DNA of 61,342 bases, counting the filler, from Anaerolineae bacterium (GTDB lineage: Bacteria; Chloroflexota; Anaerolineae; Epilineales; Epilineaceae), in assembly GCA_029262755.1 (NCBI GenBank). It is 6 parts of 6 records of this genome, joined end to end, with 100 filler letters (N's around TTAATTAATTAA, not from the genome) between each part and the next. Parts side by side here need not be neighbours in the genome. Positions count along the whole stretch, not along the records: positions 23,489 to 29,008 come from JAJCYU010000286.1; 5 more parts are not named here. One strand, given 5' to 3'. Shown in pieces: positions 23,489 to 29,008 of this stretch (its first letter is position 1; every line of letters begins with the position of its first letter). The translations under genes were made by a program, and so were the position numbers. Below the pieces are notes generated by a model, which was not told the origin of the DNA, searched no databases, and worked only from the letters and a program-made list of their open reading frames with translations.

Positions 23489-24258
23489 TTTGGAGTAAAA
23501 CTGTCGTGTACTGTTGTATGCTTAAATGGAGCAATCAGTTTATAGAATAGACCATAGATAACAGGCCTTGTTACTAATGAATACGCTGTAAGGACAAATG
23601 GGATTTTTATCTTAAACGAAAACTCCTGCTCCGGAAGTAAATCTCTCTCTTCTTTTATGATATTTGCAAGTTTGTCAGAGTTTGTTACAAGCATGCCTCC
23701 ATTAAAAGTAGAGAAATTTTTGCCTCTGCATAAGCTAAAACAACCGGCATCTCCCAGCGTTCCAACCTTTTTGCCGTCTAATATTGCCCCAGGTGCCTGT
23801 GCTGTATCTTCCAGGACAAAAAACCCATTCTCTTTAGCAAGCTTTAATAATAAATCTATCTTGTATGGAAAGCCGAAATGATATATCGGTAGAACACATA
23901 GCGTGTCGTCATTAATAACTTCAGGCAGGTGTTCGAAATCCATAGTGAAAGTTTCTAAAGAGCTTTCACAAAGTACCGGTTTTAAACCGGCTTTCCGTAT
24001 GGGAAGGACCAGGGTCGGTACAGTATAAGCAGGTATAACTACTTCTTGCCTGTTTGAAAGTTTCTTTAATGCCTTGATAAATATATATATGGAAGAAGTA
24101 CATTTATTAAAGGAAAAAGCATGGTTTGTCCCCATATACCTTGCAAAGTTTTGTTCAAATTCCTCAATATAAGACTTATTTCCAAGGTATGATTTAAACC
24201 CTTTAAGTATTTCAAATATTGATAACGGAACTGCTGTCGTTGGAATCTTTTTTAGCAA
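23489..24258 (-). CDS. DegT/DnrJ/EryC1/StrS-family PLP aminotransferase, 3'-truncated
   Basis: EVVIPAYT, VLEDTAQAPG, GDAGCFSLCRGKNF (PLP Lys). GGAGG site before the TTG start. Confidence 0.88.
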
Positions 24259-24387
24259 ACCAATAACCCTCCATTTTTGTGAAGTTACATTCTGGTCGGT
24301 TAGGAAACTCCAGGATTATAGACTAACAGCCAGATATATTCAAGCTGTCCTGCTCGCAATTTGTAAGAAATATTGAGCCGGTAATTA

Positions 24388-25050
24388 CTAGTATCCCGCT
24401 TTTACCAGAATTATTGGTGCAAACATTGTTATCGGAAATCCTATGGGTATTGTTTCTTTTATAACAAGGCCTTTGGATGTTAAAATCGTGGTTAATTCCT
24501 TTAATGAATATGCTTTTAAGGTTACGTGAGTATCGTAAATCCACACAAATTTGAAGCTGAGATAAACAAAAGGGTTTATCTTATTGCGGACATCAAATAT
24601 TATAAAACCGTCTCGTTTGCATACTCTTTCCATTTCTTCGAGAGTTTCAACGACATTGTCTTTAGTATGAAAATTGTAAAATATATTTATGCAAATTACA
24701 TTATCTATAGTTTTATCAAGAAAGGGTAGATTTTGTGCATGTGCTTTCAAGAAACTTAATCTATTCTGTTCCTTCTTTCTAAACTTTTTTTTAGCAGTCG
24801 CCAGTATCTCATATTCTGTATCGACACCTATGCATCTGAGTTTGTTCTCTTTTGCCATAAGGTTTTCATACAAGAGTCCATCTCCACAACCAATATCCAG
24901 TAAAAAACCATTATGGTTATTTATAAGTTGTCTTGCCTTTGCCCTTATTTTAAAACGAAATAGATCAGATGTCAGGTCACCTCTTTCATCAGGTTTTGAT
25001 AGAAAATCACGGACTAGATTAGTTAATGGACGTAATATTTTACTAAGCAT
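24388..25050 (-). CDS. Class I SAM-dependent methyltransferase
   Basis: LLDIGCGDG motif I, AQNLPFLDKTID. Confidence 0.88.
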   Translation of the reverse strand: MLSKILRPLTNLVRDFLSKPDERGDLTSDLFRFKIRAKARQLINNHNGFLLDIGCGDGLLYENLMAKENKLRCIGVDTEYEILATAKKKFRKKEQNRLSFLKAHAQNLPFLDKTIDNVICINIFYNFHTKDNVVETLEEMERVCKRDGFIIFDVRNKINPFVYLSFKFVWIYDTHVTLKAYSLKELTTILTSKGLVIKETIPIGFPITMFAPIILVKAGY

Positions 25051-25066
25051 TTAAATATTCATAATC

Positions 25067-26191
25067 TTATGAAGATGATACATTATTGATGCTTTCTCTG
25101 AAAAGTGGTTTTTCTGTGATCATCTCCGTCAAAAGAGATTCTACTCTCTCCCATACCATATCAGTCGTAATACTTTCCATGCATTCATGAGTTCTGCACG
25201 TATGTTTTAGACAAGGGCTGCATGATACTTTCATACCGGTAACTATACGGCTTTTGGATCTTGTATCATAAGGACCGTATCGGTAGGGATTTTCTGGCCC
25301 AAACAGTACTACATACGGTGTATTTATTGCGTCTGCAATATGAAATGGCCCCGTGTCATTTGAAATAAAGAGATGAACACGTTCCAAAAGAGCACCAAGT
25401 CTGCTAAGTGGTAGCCCAACTGCCAGGATAGGTTGAACATCCTTAAGATCGTTGTTTATTTCGTTAGCAATATTATCATTATTACCACCTGTAATGATAA
25501 TCTGGGCTTTATAATTTTGGAATAGCCTTCTCCCTATCTCAACAAATCCCTTACTTTTCCATTGCCTGGAAGGAACAAATGCTCCGGGTTGAAGAGCTAC
25601 GATTGTCCTGTTATCGTCAATACCTGCATCCATTAGCCAGTTGTTTATGAATTCTTTGTCTTCTTCTGAAATATAGAATTCCTGTTTTGTATTTTTCGTT
25701 TCTGCACCTAACGCTCCTGCAATTAACAGTTTTCGATCAACCTCATGGACCTTTCCAAAAAGATCATCGCCTACCTTAACATCCAGAAAGAATCCCTTTC
25801 CATCAGAATTTCTGCCTACTCTGTTTTTTGCCCCTACACCTTTGTAAAATATATATCTTCGCAAAGAGGCTTTCCATGTTTCTATTGCTTCCAAATCTAT
25901 CATCATGTCAAACTTCTCTTTACGCAAAGCCAATAGTAATTTAATATTCGAGAATATTTGTTTATAGATAGATTTTGATGGGCCCTTGCTGAATGCTTCT
26001 TGTTTGAAGTATAGTATCCTGTCTGCGTATTGTTTGACATCTATCGTCTGCGCCGTTCGCGGCACCGTAAGCAATACTATATCACTATCCGAAAATCTTT
26101 CACGTAATGCTCTTAATGCAGGTGTTGACATTATCATATCACCAATCCCACCTGCTTCCATAATTAAAATTTTCTTATTCTTAACAGACAT
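25067..26191 (-). CDS. Glycosyltransferase family 9 (LPS heptosyltransferase-like)
   Basis: GGIGDMIMSTPALRAL, ISNDTGPFHIA, VLFGP, CSPC...CM tail. Confidence 0.92.
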   Translation of the reverse strand: MSVKNKKILIMEAGGIGDMIMSTPALRALRERFSDSDIVLLTVPRTAQTIDVKQYADRILYFKQEAFSKGPSKSIYKQIFSNIKLLLALRKEKFDMMIDLEAIETWKASLRRYIFYKGVGAKNRVGRNSDGKGFFLDVKVGDDLFGKVHEVDRKLLIAGALGAETKNTKQEFYISEEDKEFINNWLMDAGIDDNRTIVALQPGAFVPSRQWKSKGFVEIGRRLFQNYKAQIIITGGNNDNIANEINNDLKDVQPILAVGLPLSRLGALLERVHLFISNDTGPFHIADAINTPYVVLFGPENPYRYGPYDTRSKSRIVTGMKVSCSPCLKHTCRTHECMESITTDMVWERVESLLTEMITEKPLFRESINNVSSS

Positions 26192-27380
26192 CCTTTTTTG
26201 CGTATATCGTAGGATCTTTCTCAGGATGGAAAAATTTTAAACGTTTCAGTTGTTCCTTTACAGCAGACAGAAAATCATTTGTCTCGATCAGTTTCATACA
26301 CTCATGCGTCTTACAAATCCCCTTTTTGCATGGACTGCAGTCTAAATCTTTTCTTAATACTATGTGATTTTTGCCATATGGCCACCAGTGATAAGGGACT
26401 GTAGGTCCCATTGTTGAAACTGTTGGAATATTTAAGGCCGTTGCTATATGGAGAGGCCCGGAGTTATTACAGAGAAACAGACTGCAGTGATTCAACGTCG
26501 ACATAAACTCCCTTAAGCTGAGATCTTCGAGAATGATGGGTGTCTTAACCGCATAATCTTTATATTCTGACATGAGCTGCTTTTCTTCTCTGCCTGCAAA
26601 AAGAATTACGTTTATGTCATAGCTGGTTATTAGATAATCTGATATAGCTGCAAATCTTTTTATGGGCCATCTCTGGCTCTCATAATGTCCGCCAGGGTGT
26701 ATGCCAATAATTCTACTCTCCGGATTTACTCTATTTTTTATCAATAGTTTAGTAGCATTTCCCTTTTCATCTGTACTCAAAAAAATTTCCGGTTGTCTCT
26801 TTTGTGCCTGAATACCTAAATATGCTAATAAATTCAGATTGTAATCAATCATATGTTTCTTTTCAGTAGAAACAGGAAAAACATTTGGATGATACCTGAT
26901 GTTATAGAAAATTCCTCTTCCGGCAAACTCAAAACCAAGCCTGAATCTATTTCCAACAAAACGAGTTATAAATGATGTTTTAAGTTCGTAATCTAGATAC
27001 GGATCAATAACAAGATCAAATTTCCTTTCCCTTATACCCCTGAAAAAAATTAATCTGCTATTGAAACTTTTGTGCTCATTCTCTCTGTCATAGACCAATA
27101 TGCAATCAATAAACGGATTTTTGATTACTATATTTTTATTTATCGGATTAGTCAGGACAGTAACTTGTACATCAGGCCACCCTTCTTTTAATGCCCTGAA
27201 GATTGGGGTTGTCATTACCATATCACCAATCCTATCGAGCCGTATTACTAAAATTTTTTTGATACTTGAGTCTGATAAATCATCTTTCTTATAAGTTTTT
27301 GTAAAAGAACATAAACTTCTAAATATAATATTTCTGAGTGCGAGGTATAAATCTTCTAGCTTTCTATTTCTTGATTTCAT
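26181..27380 (-). CDS. Glycosyltransferase family 9 (LPS heptosyltransferase-like)
   Basis: RLDRIGDMVMTTP, HPGG...RWP, CNNSGPLHIA, CSPC. Likely start is the ATG at 27380 (MKSRN). The ORF-track extension lies in a repeat arm. Confidence 0.92.
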   Translation of the reverse strand: MKSRNRKLEDLYLALRNIIFRSLCSFTKTYKKDDLSDSSIKKILVIRLDRIGDMVMTTPIFRALKEGWPDVQVTVLTNPINKNIVIKNPFIDCILVYDRENEHKSFNSRLIFFRGIRERKFDLVIDPYLDYELKTSFITRFVGNRFRLGFEFAGRGIFYNIRYHPNVFPVSTEKKHMIDYNLNLLAYLGIQAQKRQPEIFLSTDEKGNATKLLIKNRVNPESRIIGIHPGGHYESQRWPIKRFAAISDYLITSYDINVILFAGREEKQLMSEYKDYAVKTPIILEDLSLREFMSTLNHCSLFLCNNSGPLHIATALNIPTVSTMGPTVPYHWWPYGKNHIVLRKDLDCSPCKKGICKTHECMKLIETNDFLSAVKEQLKRLKFFHPEKDPTIYAKKDVC

Positions 27381-27391
27381 ATCAGTTATAG

Positions 27392-27424
27392 GCCACGAAG
27401 TCACAAAGACACCAAAACACAAAA
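27392..27424. repeat. Left arm of octamer-periodic inverted repeat flanking the GxxExxY gene
   Basis: GCCACGAAG-TCACAAAG-ACACCAAA-ACACAAAA, complementary to 27826-27850. Confidence 0.8.
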
Positions 27425-27425
27425 A

Positions 27426-27818
27426 CTAAAGAATCATTCGCTTTATACCGTCTTTAATATACTTATTATTGAAATTAATAAGAAAGCCTAAGCGTTTTCC
27501 AGTAAGTTTCAAATGACTCAGTATTTGTGCTTCCCAAACTGGATTTAAATTATCAACTGCTTTAAGTTCACAGATGATAAGATTCTCAACTAATACATCC
27601 AATCTTAAACCTTCTTCAAATACTTTACCATCATAGACAATAGGAACCTCTACTTGTCTTTGATAAGCGAGTTTCCTTTTCGTAAGCTCATGACAAAAAC
27701 AAACCTCATATACTTTTTCGAGCAAACCAGGACCTAGTTCTTTATGTACACAATATACCGCATCAACAATTTTTGTTGCTATATCTTCTTCCTTTTTGGA
27801 AAGCGGTTTGAACATCAT
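27426..27818 (-). CDS. GxxExxY protein (PD-(D/E)XK nuclease superfamily)
   Basis: 130 aa with ELGPGLLEKVY (GxxExxY), RLDVLVENLIICELK (D...ExK) and AQILSHLK...GFLINF. Confidence 0.93.
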   Translation of the reverse strand: MMFKPLSKKEEDIATKIVDAVYCVHKELGPGLLEKVYEVCFCHELTKRKLAYQRQVEVPIVYDGKVFEEGLRLDVLVENLIICELKAVDNLNPVWEAQILSHLKLTGKRLGFLINFNNKYIKDGIKRMIL

Positions 27819-27825
27819 GTTATTG

Positions 27826-27850
27826 CTTTGTGTCTTAGTGCCTTAGTGGC
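27826..27850. repeat. Right arm of octamer-periodic inverted repeat flanking the GxxExxY gene
   Basis: Minus strand reads GCCACTAAG-GCACTAAG-ACACAAAG. It contains the GT4 stop codon. Confidence 0.8.
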
Positions 27851-29001
27851 AAGATTGAAATTTCCTTAACCTTGGTTTCTAGCAATTCTAAATAAACATT
27901 TTCTGTCTCTTTAATGTTCCTTTCAATTGTAAACATCTCCTCAACTCTTTTTCTGCCGGCTTTTCCATACTGCTCTGAAAGAGATTTATTATGTAGCAGC
28001 TTCATTATGTATTTTGCCATACTTGAAGGATCTTTCGGTTTTACTAAAAACCCCGTAATACCATCCTGCACAACTTCCGGTGTACCTCCTGCATTAATTG
28101 CTACAAGGGGTTTTTGCATTGCCATAGCTTCAAACAATACCCTGCTGCAGGCATCTATCTCTGACGGTAATACGACTACATCCATACTTGCAAGAAGTTG
28201 TGGTATGTCCCTTCTGAATCCGGTAAATATAGTCTTTTTCTCTATTCCTTTCTCAACTGATATTTCATAGAGCGATTTTTCAAGTGAAGGATTATTAAAC
28301 GCCTTGCCGACAACGAGAAAACGTACATTCCGGACATCCTGTAAAATAATCCTCGCGCTCTCCAGAAAACGCTCATAACCTTTTTCCGGGTCGATACGGC
28401 CAATGGTTCCTACTACGAGTTCATCTTCGCCAATGTCAAACTCTTTTCTAATTATTCTTCCGTTTACTTCAGGATCAAATTCTCTTAAGTCTACACCATT
28501 GAATATTGTCTTAATTTTGGTGTATATTTTTTCTTTTGTGAATCTGTTCCTGACTGCATTTGAATTGCAAATAATCCTGTCTGGTAAAAAGGAAAAAATA
28601 TTGTCACTGTCAAATCTGCCTCTTTCAAGACATCTCTCATGCCATACTATGGGAACATTTTTTATCTTTGCCGCAATGGCACCAAACAAATTGGAGCGAG
28701 GCTGGTTTGAGTGAATCAAGTCTATATGTTTCTTTTTTATGATATCTGCCAGATCCCTGATAGTTTTGCAAATTCGCACGGGATTTGGCCATCGTATGCT
28801 GGGGAATTGAACAAAGTCAGGCAGGATTTTTATATTTCTCAGTTCATCTATAAAAGGCCCCTCCTTGGAACAGGCAAAGTGGGCTTTAAAAAGTTTCTTA
28901 TTTAATCTCTTTACTAAATTTAATAAACTTATCTCTGCCCCACCCATTATGGATTCATTGTGAAGATAGAGGATATTAAACTTTTTACCATCATTAATCA
29001 T
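27835..29001 (-). CDS. Glycosyltransferase family 4
   Basis: GGAEISL, IFNGVD, GRIDPEKG, VLFEAMAMQKP...GGTPEVVQDG. Confidence 0.92.
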   Translation of the reverse strand: MINDGKKFNILYLHNESIMGGAEISLLNLVKRLNKKLFKAHFACSKEGPFIDELRNIKILPDFVQFPSIRWPNPVRICKTIRDLADIIKKKHIDLIHSNQPRSNLFGAIAAKIKNVPIVWHERCLERGRFDSDNIFSFLPDRIICNSNAVRNRFTKEKIYTKIKTIFNGVDLREFDPEVNGRIIRKEFDIGEDELVVGTIGRIDPEKGYERFLESARIILQDVRNVRFLVVGKAFNNPSLEKSLYEISVEKGIEKKTIFTGFRRDIPQLLASMDVVVLPSEIDACSRVLFEAMAMQKPLVAINAGGTPEVVQDGITGFLVKPKDPSSMAKYIMKLLHNKSLSEQYGKAGRKRVEEMFTIERNIKETENVYLELLETKVKEISILPLRH

Positions 29002-29008
29002 GTAACCT

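Follow-up and report, generated by a model that had tools for sequence, protein, structure and literature searches.

A 130-aa GxxExxY gene in the window (the whole stretch of DNA that was analysed, 61,342 nucleotides) is enclosed by two inverted arms built of 8-nt units, and comparison of junction alleles shows that this cassette is an insertion, in the sense direction, at a junction of a Scalindua-type glycan operon where GT4 and GT9 used to overlap. We lean, with confidence only a little beyond even, towards reading the 459-468-bp unit as a copy of a widespread miniature mobile cassette family, in which octamer arms are combined with a PD-(D/E)XK nuclease that would drive spread or retention of the cassette. 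The features of the locus are collected in Table 1.

Table 1. Features of the cassette and its flanks, in window coordinates and in the order of transcription.
Feature	Position	Strand	Basis or remark
GT4 glycosyltransferase, upstream host gene	27835-29001	(-)	PF00534 + PF13439
TTCAATCTT, ~9 nt outside the 5' arm	27851-27859	(-)	TTCA-R-K-Y-TT in all Scalindua alleles
5' arm, three octamers GCCAC-T-AAG-G-CAC-T-AAG-A-CAC-A-AAG	27826-27850	(-)	sequence; GT4 stop inside
GxxExxY / PDDEXK_3 gene, 130 aa, intact	27426-27818	(-)	profile matches, alignment, structure model, dN/dS
3' arm, ~four octamer units ending ...CTT-C-GTGGC	27392-27424	(-)	sequence; foreign contigs diverge at 27392
CTATAACTGAT, host remnant of the ancestral GT4/GT9 junction ATATTAAGA	27381-27391	(-)	right flank aligns with empty junction
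GT9 heptosyltransferase, downstream host gene	26181-27380	(-)	PF01075

The cassette lies on a 5.5-kb contig of 36% GC (window 23489-29008), which is misbinned in an assembly of 67% GC; its closest relatives are Candidatus Scalindua contigs, and TIGR04256 has only 1 match in its own assembly. The site is the interval between the GT4 and GT9 genes and not helix 25 or 45 of 23S rRNA, and an Rfam search of the contig with E up to 1 gave no match. On the mRNA strand, the 5' arm GCCACTAAGGCACTAAGACACAAAG (27850-27826) terminates 7 nt ahead of the nuclease ATG and contains the GT4 stop codon (27835-27837, ..ILPLRH*), just as an earlier note on this DNA had read it, and the GT4 C-terminus in the window now reads into the cassette. 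The same note had the second arm directly after the nuclease stop, which needs correcting, because the 3' arm begins 1 nt past the TAG; the GT9 ATG sits 11 nt past this arm. Both arms follow the pattern GCCAC-N-AAG-N-CAC-N-AAG. By eye they pair at 20 of 25 positions, in agreement with the previous count, and a repeat search returned 24 nt at 83%. Other inverted pairs of 20-28 nt at 70-85% are present in the same contig, and the inverted repeat alone is not exceptional for 5.5 kb of such AT-rich DNA. With at most 1 mismatch allowed, the 61-kb window has 4 occurrences of the double-octamer motif CACNAAGNCACNAAG, all of them in the two arms, against 0.17 expected from shuffles (none of 100 reaches 4). 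The predicted RNA duplex of the arms reaches -28.8 kcal/mol; shuffling the arms gives -14.0 +/- 3.3, and none of 500 shuffles is as good. The MFE fold of 27380-27870 has the arms paired (z = -2.59), as the earlier note had thought possible for the transcript.

The gene between the arms is what that note took it to be, a 130-aa GxxExxY gene with nuclease residues between GT4 and GT9. Its protein matches the TIGR04256 profile with 139.8 bits (cut-off 35) and PF13366 with 134.2 bits (cut-off 22), and sequence and alignment place the motifs at G31-L-L-E34-K-V-Y37, D74, E84-L-K86, and Q98. Across 38 aligned sequences E34, Y37, E84, K86, Q98, and N115 are invariant, and D74 is conserved in at least 90%. 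With a dN/dS of 0.04-0.28, the gene is under purifying selection, in keeping with a functional protein. The structure was predicted confidently as a PD-(D/E)XK model (pLDDT 94.6) with Z scores of 7.0-7.6 to Cas4, restriction enzymes, and Hjc, and on this model the protein is a minimal PD-(D/E)XK nuclease fold, confirmed at the generic level. A sequence search of the PDB gave no match, and Foldseek with the model gave none at E up to 0.001; the substrate could not be inferred because the wide structure search returned generic PD-(D/E)XK matches tied at Z ~7. The nuclease is the sole ORF of the cassette: genes for DDE, serine, tyrosine, and HUH transposases are absent, and profile searches of the arm-flanked gene found PF13366 and no Y1 transposase match. 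This bears out the description of a self-contained element without DDE transposase or recombinase, with none inside and ends at or near the arms. GxxExxY genes are multi-copy, with 3-12 per genome. We know of no activity for any GxxExxY protein, and a PD-(D/E)XK nuclease alone cannot join strands. In the literature, PDDEXK_3 is listed with unknown function and multiple transfers.

The insertion was read from 16 alleles of the GT4/GT9 junction: 5 with the ORF, 3 with decayed remnants, 4 with a CGC-N-AAG hairpin, 1 with another palindrome, and 3 empty. The empty site in relatives that the earlier note proposed to look for was thus found, in three related Scalindua-type contigs in which GT4 overlaps GT9 by 11-17 nt. 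These junctions read ...GATATTAAGAATGAAATC... or ...GAGTTGTTAAATGAAATC..., which differs from the predicted ...ATCTTCTATAACTGATATG.... Exact deletion of 27392-27850 does yield ...ATC TTC TAT AAC TGA T ATG, and the meaning once seen in this in-frame product gives way to coincidence, the GT4 stop lying upstream of the arm at loci L002 and L003. Contigs from other metagenomes cease to match the window exactly at 27392 and 27849/27850. Against the empty allele, the left breakpoint lies ~9 nt outside the 5' arm, and TTCAATCTT, which compares with GTTCA-GCCAC in other family copies, probably still belongs to the inserted DNA. The right flank matches the empty junction from (A)TATTAA onward, and CTATAACTGAT may be the right-hand copy of a short duplicated target; the flanks of the window and of the Scalindua alleles are compatible with a possible duplication of 4-8 nt, which is not clear. 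No clean empty junction was seen in reads of runs X1, X2, X3, and X20; the last, which might have been RNA, is probably DNA, its contigs cover little of the cassette, and no RNA run was listed as carrying the sequence. With sides no longer than 21-24 nt, the read joints from 27412/27415/27423 to 27823/27826 are taken as gene-less hairpins from elsewhere, and an X3 read joint from 27380 to 27878 has unknown letters between its two sides. Altogether, the alleles also show that inserted cassettes can lose the ORF, leaving hairpins or arm remnants.

Nucleotide identity drops stepwise at the arm ends. The dS of the cassette is 0.17-0.43 versus 0.66-0.85 for GT4 and 0.44-1.35 for GT9. Synonymous divergence is 2-5 times lower in the cassette than in the flanking genes. 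Measured against these two glycan genes, the cassette at this junction is apparently younger than the genes around it and has therefore moved between lineages into the same site. The low values could instead be due to the glycan genes being unusually divergent recombinant alleles.

Arms are a family trait of GxxExxY genes, in line with the earlier note: among 81 ORFs (80 loci and the window) from close relatives in many phyla, 61 are enclosed by strict arms. Fifty-three loci have exact GCCAC/GTGGC ends, with GTGGC closing the 3' arm; their elements have a median length of 452 nt, and 727 of 742 cells at the fixed positions are paired. The idea that the helix is kept by covariation did not hold, since the variable octamer positions pair in 80 of 212 cases, and shuffling the partners gives 68.9 +/- 6.4; only the fixed positions therefore support the RNA stem of the model. 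The linkage of gene and arms persists across many phyla at 67-88% protein identity; part of their co-occurrence is trivial, as every gene comes with two arms. Among paralogues below 60% identity, 17 of 19 are without CACNAAG arms, and many have other octamers; the distant paralogues keep the arm layout with these other octamers. The same layout is seen around genes for the four-helix-bundle "23S rRNA IVS protein" (TIGR02436), where inspection by eye found inverted tandem-repeat arms in 21 of the 22 printed members in the examined genomes, with units of 8 nt in most and of 7 or 16 nt in a few. Neighbours lie on the same strand as the cassette in 68 of 76 cases upstream and 64 of 69 downstream, and one EPS operon (L088) has a hairpin in nearly every gap. 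At another locus (L028), a CACNAAG arm pair surrounds a different ORF of 371 aa, for which no Pfam family was found.

Copies without the gene are abundant. Of 151 genomes from one order, 44 carry arms, and arm matches numbered 10-84 per genome in 5 genomes, with 0 for a reversed control pattern. In 29 of the 44 arm-bearing genomes, whose assemblies are incomplete, a close GxxExxY gene was not seen. The gene-less copies amplify as subfamilies with identical arms and some, by eye, retain the last codons of the ORF beside the 3' arm; they resemble products of internal deletion and are more numerous than the coding copies. The earlier note saw no target-site duplication, and younger copies of the family do show duplications of 8 bp. 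In the Desulfobacteraceae genome G005, the 8-bp duplications of gene-less copies are perfect in 8 of 19 and match at 7 or more of 8 positions in 18 of 19, against 9 of 342 perfect and 32% at this lower level in control pairs. They are also clear at three ORF-bearing loci (L010, L015, and L018), and a search around 53 ORF-bearing loci gave a weak excess (8/8 in 4 of 53, versus 2.9% of controls). These results show that copies without the gene multiply inside a genome and duplicate 8 bp of target as they insert. Inspection of their flanks by eye suggests a preference for A-run targets (about GAAAAAnC). In G005 the outer end GTAACTnnTCAGGT is common to GxxExxY cassettes and to cassettes carrying four-helix-bundle genes. 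IS66-type elements have GTAA ends and an 8-bp duplication, and an IS66-type transposase was considered as mobiliser; a search of G005, an incomplete MAG, turned up no IS66-type DDE. One copy of an IS66-type transposase is present in the Scalindua genome G002.

In the explanation towards which we lean, the nuclease would drive spread or retention by cleaving sites that are empty or lack the gene, or by cleaving the element ends, and host repair would copy the cassette in; such spread would be homing-like, unlike the reaction of a classical transposase. The octamers differ between protein clades under a constant design, and for this reason they would be the units that the cassette's own protein recognises. 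The cassette would rely on read-through transcription of the host operon, and the arms would close the ORF in a transcript stem, in the manner of 23S rRNA intervening sequences that carry an ORF. Classical transposases, however, typically give rise to an 8-bp duplication together with outer inverted ends, and these features speak for an alternative that we consider serious though unlikely: an unlinked (DDE-type) transposase would act in trans on a MITE-like vehicle made up of the arms and outer inverted ends, and the nuclease or the four-helix-bundle protein would be cargo with a role of its own, e.g., in defence, addiction, or nucleic-acid processing, and not the mobility enzyme. The outer end that precedes two arm/cargo types in G005 fits a trans-acting enzyme better than two unrelated small-protein transposases, and the arm-bearing genomes (incomplete assemblies) that showed no close GxxExxY gene and the different ORF inside the arm pair of L028 point the same way. 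On the other hand, no transposase gene was seen with these ends; G005 had no arm pairs 1-2 kb apart among the matches listed (30 more were unlisted) and, as an incomplete MAG, no IS66-type DDE; the gene-arm linkage holds across phyla; and a pure passenger would not require octamers that change with the protein clade. Mobility may be due either to the nuclease or to a transposase encoded elsewhere.

The strong sense orientation within co-directional gene strings, the intercistronic position, including the hairpin-rich EPS operon, and the stable predicted arm duplex could also be accounted for if the arms act mainly as a transcript stem, which RNase III cuts or which stabilises or insulates the operon mRNA, like REP or the rRNA IVS; DNA mobility would then be historical and the present role regulatory. 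Size and layout resemble those of the Coxiella burnetii IVS of 428/444 nt, whose 28-bp stem is cut by RNase III (PMC4990558). We judge this improbable as the main explanation, given that each stem, without covariation, has a mismatch about every fourth base and that target duplications, bursts of identical copies, and a young cassette are DNA-level phenomena, although an RNA-level function is compatible with the homing-like reading. That a chance inverted repeat surrounds an ordinary resident gene can be given almost no credence: a repeat of 24 nt at 83% is equalled by other pairs in the AT-rich contig, but the octamer arms in many phyla, the empty alleles, and the four motif occurrences in place of 0.17 refute it.

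More speculatively, and with doubt clearly outweighing confidence, the GxxExxY and four-helix-bundle IVS cassettes could be two cargo classes of one operon-riding superfamily, in which the arms would be binding-site arrays for the cassette's own protein, the nuclease a structure- or sequence-specific homing enzyme acting transposase-free on hairpin-bearing or empty junctions, and the rRNA IVS those members that landed in rRNA. The cassette family is widespread and seemingly undescribed, as no published description of an octamer-armed cassette was found in the literature on GxxExxY, PDDEXK_3, IVS, four-helix bundle, and MITE. Two large multi-copy protein families without known function, GxxExxY/PDDEXK_3 and the four-helix-bundle IVS proteins, are here tied to one architecture, namely tandem-octamer inverted arms, sense insertion at operon junctions, and gene-less derivatives with target duplications. 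The GxxExxY protein thereby gains a concrete, testable candidate function, action on its own arms, and ORF-bearing rRNA intervening sequences would be placed within a much larger class of mobile cassettes. Cassettes and hairpins disrupt operon junctions and lengthen or shorten adjacent ORFs, as at the GT4 C-terminus of this locus; they are also a probable cause of fragmented metagenome assemblies. Should a 130-aa nuclease and 25-nt arms suffice for site-directed spread, the cassette would rank with the smallest autonomous mobile units known.

Among known systems, a free-standing homing endonuclease gene shares with the cassette a small nuclease ORF, filled and empty alleles of one site, and an element less diverged than its flanks; the cassette differs in lying outside any intron or intein, in its structured inverted arms, and in its many ectopic and gene-less copies, and cutting of the empty site is only proposed. 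To our knowledge the REPINs of RAYT carry no target duplications, whereas the gene-less copies of the cassette carry 8-bp duplications. REPIN-RAYT systems are otherwise similar in that gene-less copies amplify as subfamilies and in palindromic repeats numbering tens per genome with few coding copies flanked by the same repeats (PMC3116915, PMC3337134); RAYT is an HUH tyrosine transposase that usually occurs once per genome and is inherited vertically, whereas the cassette protein is a multi-copy PD-(D/E)XK protein that crosses phyla. With MITEs and their parent IS elements (PMC3184786), the cassette family shares terminal inverted repeats, which are present at the ends of the inserted DNA as in a TIR transposon or MITE, target-site duplications that are clear in the gene-less copies of G005 and at some ORF-bearing loci, and gene-less derivatives that outnumber coding copies, but its coding form has no recognised transposase and its arms are internally repetitive with 8-nt periodicity. 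The 23S rRNA IVS of Coxiella burnetii and Leptospira (PMC4990558) is likewise a unit of ~430-450 nt with one small ORF in a terminal-inverted-repeat stem loop, located within a host transcript, with a patchy distribution and signs of horizontal transfer. The cassette, in contrast, lies between protein genes and not in rRNA helix 25 or 45, it encodes a PF13366 PD-(D/E)XK nuclease in place of S23p / PF05635 / TIGR02436, and its arms are octamers mismatched at every variable position, whereas the IVS stem is a near-perfect helix of 28 bp.

The contig carrying the cassette (positions 23489-29008, 5,520 bp) has 36% GC against a median contig GC of 67.5% in the assembly, and it is among 20 low-GC contigs, totalling 131 kb, in the same bin; the window is a chain of contigs whose joints are N runs and TTAATTAATTAA spacers. 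The nearest relatives of the GT4, GxxExxY and GT9 genes are found on Candidatus Scalindua contigs (the cassette protein is 83-90% identical, GT9 74-87%). Because of the GC mismatch with the bin and the Scalindua affinity of all three genes, we treated the contig as a binning contaminant, presumably a fragment from a Scalindua-like anammox bacterium that was misbinned. The window's GxxExxY gene is the only one in the source assembly.

Features of the cassette locus in window coordinates, and sites of the GC-rich mini-hairpin in the loci compared
Feature	Position	Strand	Remarks
GT4 glycosyltransferase gene	27835-29001	minus	
5' arm	27826-27850		read from sequence
GxxExxY/PDDEXK_3 gene, 130 aa	27426-27818	minus	TIGR04256 139.8 bits, PF13366 134.2 bits
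3' arm	27392-27424		read from sequence
GT9 heptosyltransferase gene	26181-27380	minus	
GC-rich mini-hairpin sites	L011:2975-3000, L089:598-625, L045, L047, L142, L165, L167		

The arms lie where an earlier note on this DNA had placed them and the GT4 stop codon falls inside the 5' arm, as claimed there; the 3' arm, described as following directly after the stop codon of the nuclease gene, starts 1 nt past it instead. By itself, the inverted repeat (24 nt, 83%) is ordinary for this AT-rich contig. The double octamer CACNAAGNCACNAAG occurs four times in 61 kb, always within the arms (shuffle expectation 0.17, with 0/100 shuffles reaching four), and the arm duplex has an energy of -28.8 kcal/mol versus -14.0 +/- 3.3 for shuffled arms. 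The AlphaFold model of the GxxExxY protein is of high confidence (pLDDT 94.6) and shows a minimal PD-(D/E)XK domain; its motif residues are E34, D74, E84-x-K86 and Q98-x-x-x-Y/H, the last of which resembles the RecB/Cas4 family. Structural matches were generic and tied at Z 7.0-7.6 (Cas4 SSO0001, CinB, BpuSI, SwaI and Hjc), and Foldseek returned lambda exonuclease and Cas4 at E ~0.01; these matches confirm a nuclease fold and do not indicate a substrate.

We compared 80 loci that encode relatives (67-88% identity); they are spread over Planctomycetota, Desulfobacterota, Bacteroidota, KSB1, Nitrospinota, Cloacimonadota and further phyla. When the flanks were read, nearly all of these loci had GCCAC-N-AAG-R-CAC-N-AAG-R-CAC-N-AAG ahead of the gene and the reverse complement of this sequence, with GTGGC at its end, behind it. 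Strict patterns bracketed 61 of 81 ORFs (the 80 loci plus the window), bearing out the expectation that GxxExxY genes have complementary octamer arms; the remaining 20 mostly showed hairpin-ORF-hairpin arrangements, looser arms or N runs. Among the 53 loci whose ends are exactly GCCAC and GTGGC, the median element was 452 nt, and the most frequent distances are 32 nt from the start of the 5' arm to the ATG and 26 nt from the stop to the end of the 3' arm. In many loci the last octamer and the next bases (..AAAGGATAAAT-ATG) read like a ribosome-binding site, and the N-terminus that looks annotated in some Bacteroidota (MPQSHEDTK...) is translated arm. The gene shares its strand with the upstream neighbour in 68/76 loci and with the downstream one in 64/69 (median gaps of 63 and 78 nt), and therefore the cassette sits in sense inside operons; its expression probably relies on read-through transcription.

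Fixed arm positions were paired in 727 of 742 cells across the 53 loci. The covariation looked for at the variable positions (6, 10, 14 and 18) did not materialize: they pair in 80/212 cases versus 68.9 +/- 6.4 with partners shuffled among loci (P = 0.05), so real covariation is absent there. The arms are each conserved as an inverted sequence array, the stem is mismatched about every fourth base, and pairing in shifted register is also possible because the units are tandem. A Scalindua-type allele (L157:1430-1500) has six octamer units in its 3' arm (cttttgtgtttttgtgtttttgtgcctttgtgcctttgtgcctttgtggc), and arm length therefore varies by whole units in a slippage-like manner. In a Desulfatiglandales EPS-type operon (L088, G001:C2:5934500-5946500), seven CACNAAG hairpins occur within 12 kb, almost one per intercistronic gap, and a complete hairpin stands on either side of the GxxExxY gene there, in place of a single arm. 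In the Bacteroidales contig G003:C4 (e.g., 4165947-4166008 and 4689209-4689270), arms are often tail-to-head (..GTGGC, 12 nt, GCCAC..), the reverse of the hairpin with GCCAC at its base, and no ORF of at least 70 aa lay between or beside them at the three places examined.

Orthologous GT4-GT9 junctions were taken from species-representative genomes and metagenomes, and 16 loci, window included, were counted, leaving out L153 (different upstream gene), L154 and L156 (GT9 5' end off contig) and L161 (29% identity). An intact cassette ORF was present in 5/16 (the window, L082 (= L002), L003, L086 (= L004) and L157); 3/16 kept the 5' arm and lost the ORF (L083, L087 and L160); 4/16 had a short hairpin with CGC-N-AAG octamers (L084, L152, which equals L084 where shown, L150 and L159); one had an unrelated palindrome (L085, S. 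rubra), and three were empty (L151, L155 and L158). This comparison of alleles shows the cassette to be an insertion at the GT4/GT9 junction whose ends are the arms or lie close to them. The earlier note computed the arm-to-arm deletion correctly and the empty alleles that it sought exist, but their junction differs from the predicted one: GT4 terminates in ...LELLDIKNEI(KK)*, with an overlap of 11-17 nt with the start of GT9. With the flanks aligned to the empty site, the right breakpoint is the 3' arm end (within 1 nt) and the left breakpoint is displaced outward from the 5' arm by ~9 nt; at this divergence, about 4-8 nt (ATATTAA) may be shared by the two sides of the Scalindua-type insert. 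Contigs from other metagenomes that match the cassette part from the window precisely at 27392 and 27849/27850. The CGC-N-AAG hairpins on other Scalindua-type contigs (L084:2359-2500, L150 and L159) are gene-less, ~100 nt long and of the arm type of a different GxxExxY clade; as they occupy the same junction, this is a repeated landing site. The GT4 upstream of the L086/L004 cassette matches only residues 1-82 and the last codons, and because of this internal deletion it is probably a pseudogene beside an intact cassette.

Pairwise among cassette alleles, dS was 0.17-0.43 for the cassette gene (84-98% nucleotide identity over cassette columns), 0.66-0.85 for GT4 (72-93%; L086, whose GT4 is deleted, excluded) and 0.44-1.35 for GT9 (65-97%), and the identity step coincides with the arm ends; the cassette thus appears younger than the genes on either side. 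The exception is the pair L003-L086 (GT9 dS 0.25 versus cassette dS 0.35). The cassette protein is under purifying selection (dN/dS 0.04-0.28). The simplest reading is that the Scalindua-type lineages had already split when the cassette reached this one junction or was replaced there; alternatively, the contrast being measured against GT4 and GT9, these glycan genes could be unusually divergent alleles.

Five genomes each carry 3-12 GxxExxY genes. At 33-49% identity, paralogues keep the arm-ORF-arm layout but use different octamers (CGCAAAG, CGCAGAG, CACAGAT, CACGGAA, ACAGGATA and ACGAAA). Among the 19 paralogues below 60% identity, two have CACNAAG-type arms and nine have flanks complementary at 14/16 positions or more, versus 9% of mismatched controls. 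The same genomes each contain 7-23 four-helix-bundle genes of TIGR02436, the family to which the ORFs of 23S rRNA intervening sequences belong, and by eye 21 of 22 genes whose flanks were inspected had inverted arms made up of short repeats in tandem, most with 8-nt units (including GGTTCAAG, AGTTAGGA, GTCCAAAG, GCGATGTG, AAGTTTCA and CGAAATCC); none of the 22 had CACNAAG arms. The arm octamers differ with the protein, and the four-helix-bundle genes are, judging from these flanks, a second cargo of the same design. Right behind a normal GxxExxY cassette, a CACNAAG arm pair surrounds a 371-aa ORF (MNNNPQAFVLMPFDPEF...; L028:1346-3033) that matches no Pfam family and may be different cargo within the same arms. 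A GC-rich mini-hairpin (cctgcccgcc...ggcgggcagg) is nested at varying positions within cassettes and gene-less copies, e.g., in the gap separating the 5' arm from the ATG, and appears to be another mobile hairpin of smaller size.

The 25-nt arm pattern (at most 2 mismatches) gave 38, 10, 35, 13 and 84 matches in five genomes, mostly paired 75-180 nt apart, and the reversed control gave 0. The 6-kb loci contained 22 more arm pairs with loops of 2-235 nt, one of which (L089) is a decayed cassette with only 19 codons left. Gene-less copies in the Desulfobacteraceae genome G005 fall into subfamilies whose arms and loops are almost identical, and the likeness reaches 11-19 nt past the arms into outer inverted ends (GTAACTnCTCAGGTATCTT-GCCAC ... 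GTGGC-TGAATAGTTAC, or GTAWWAGTTCA ... TGAACTWTTAC). After removal of one duplicate locus (n = 19), an 8-bp direct duplication was perfect in 8/19 copies and matched at 7/8 or better in 18/19, versus 9/342 and 32% for mismatched left/right pairs; ORF-bearing copies of the same clade have it at 8/8 (L010 and L015) or 7/8 (L016). In a sample of 151 genomes of the same order, arms were present in 44 and the protein (at least 71% identity) in 15, all among those 44, with none in the 107 arm-less genomes; this positive association is partly trivial, and because the genomes are MAGs, absence of the protein, seen also in 29 arm-bearing genomes, is weak evidence. Altogether, these genome comparisons show a compact inserted cassette that recurs across phyla, decays to hairpins and has gene-less copies spread with 8-bp duplications, and they show its apparent spread between Scalindua lineages at one junction.

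In G005 (L182-L211), CACNAAG arms at some places have the outer end GTAACTnnTCAGGT in front of them; at others the same end precedes GGTTCA-type arms, which enclose four-helix-bundle genes. Because two unrelated small proteins ride in vehicles that share their type of outer end and an 8-bp duplication, this suggests either a shared trans-acting mobiliser or recombination between element families giving chimeric ends. The main rival explanation, serious if on balance unlikely, is a gene carried as a passenger by a MITE whose movement depends on an unlinked transposase; a transposase carrying these outer ends was not found. IS66 elements have GTAA ends and generate an 8-bp duplication, and IS66 had 0 matches in G005, an incomplete MAG.

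The only statement found in the literature searched on PF13366 is "function unknown, multiple transfers" (PMC3424549), and no description of this element was found there. We propose that the octamers would be recognition units for the cognate protein. By cleaving sites that are unoccupied or lack the gene, or the ends of the element, the nuclease could help the cassette to spread or persist, the host's repair machinery copying it into the break. On the operon transcript, the arms might close the ORF in a stem, much as in the intervening sequences of 23S rRNA (PMC4990558).
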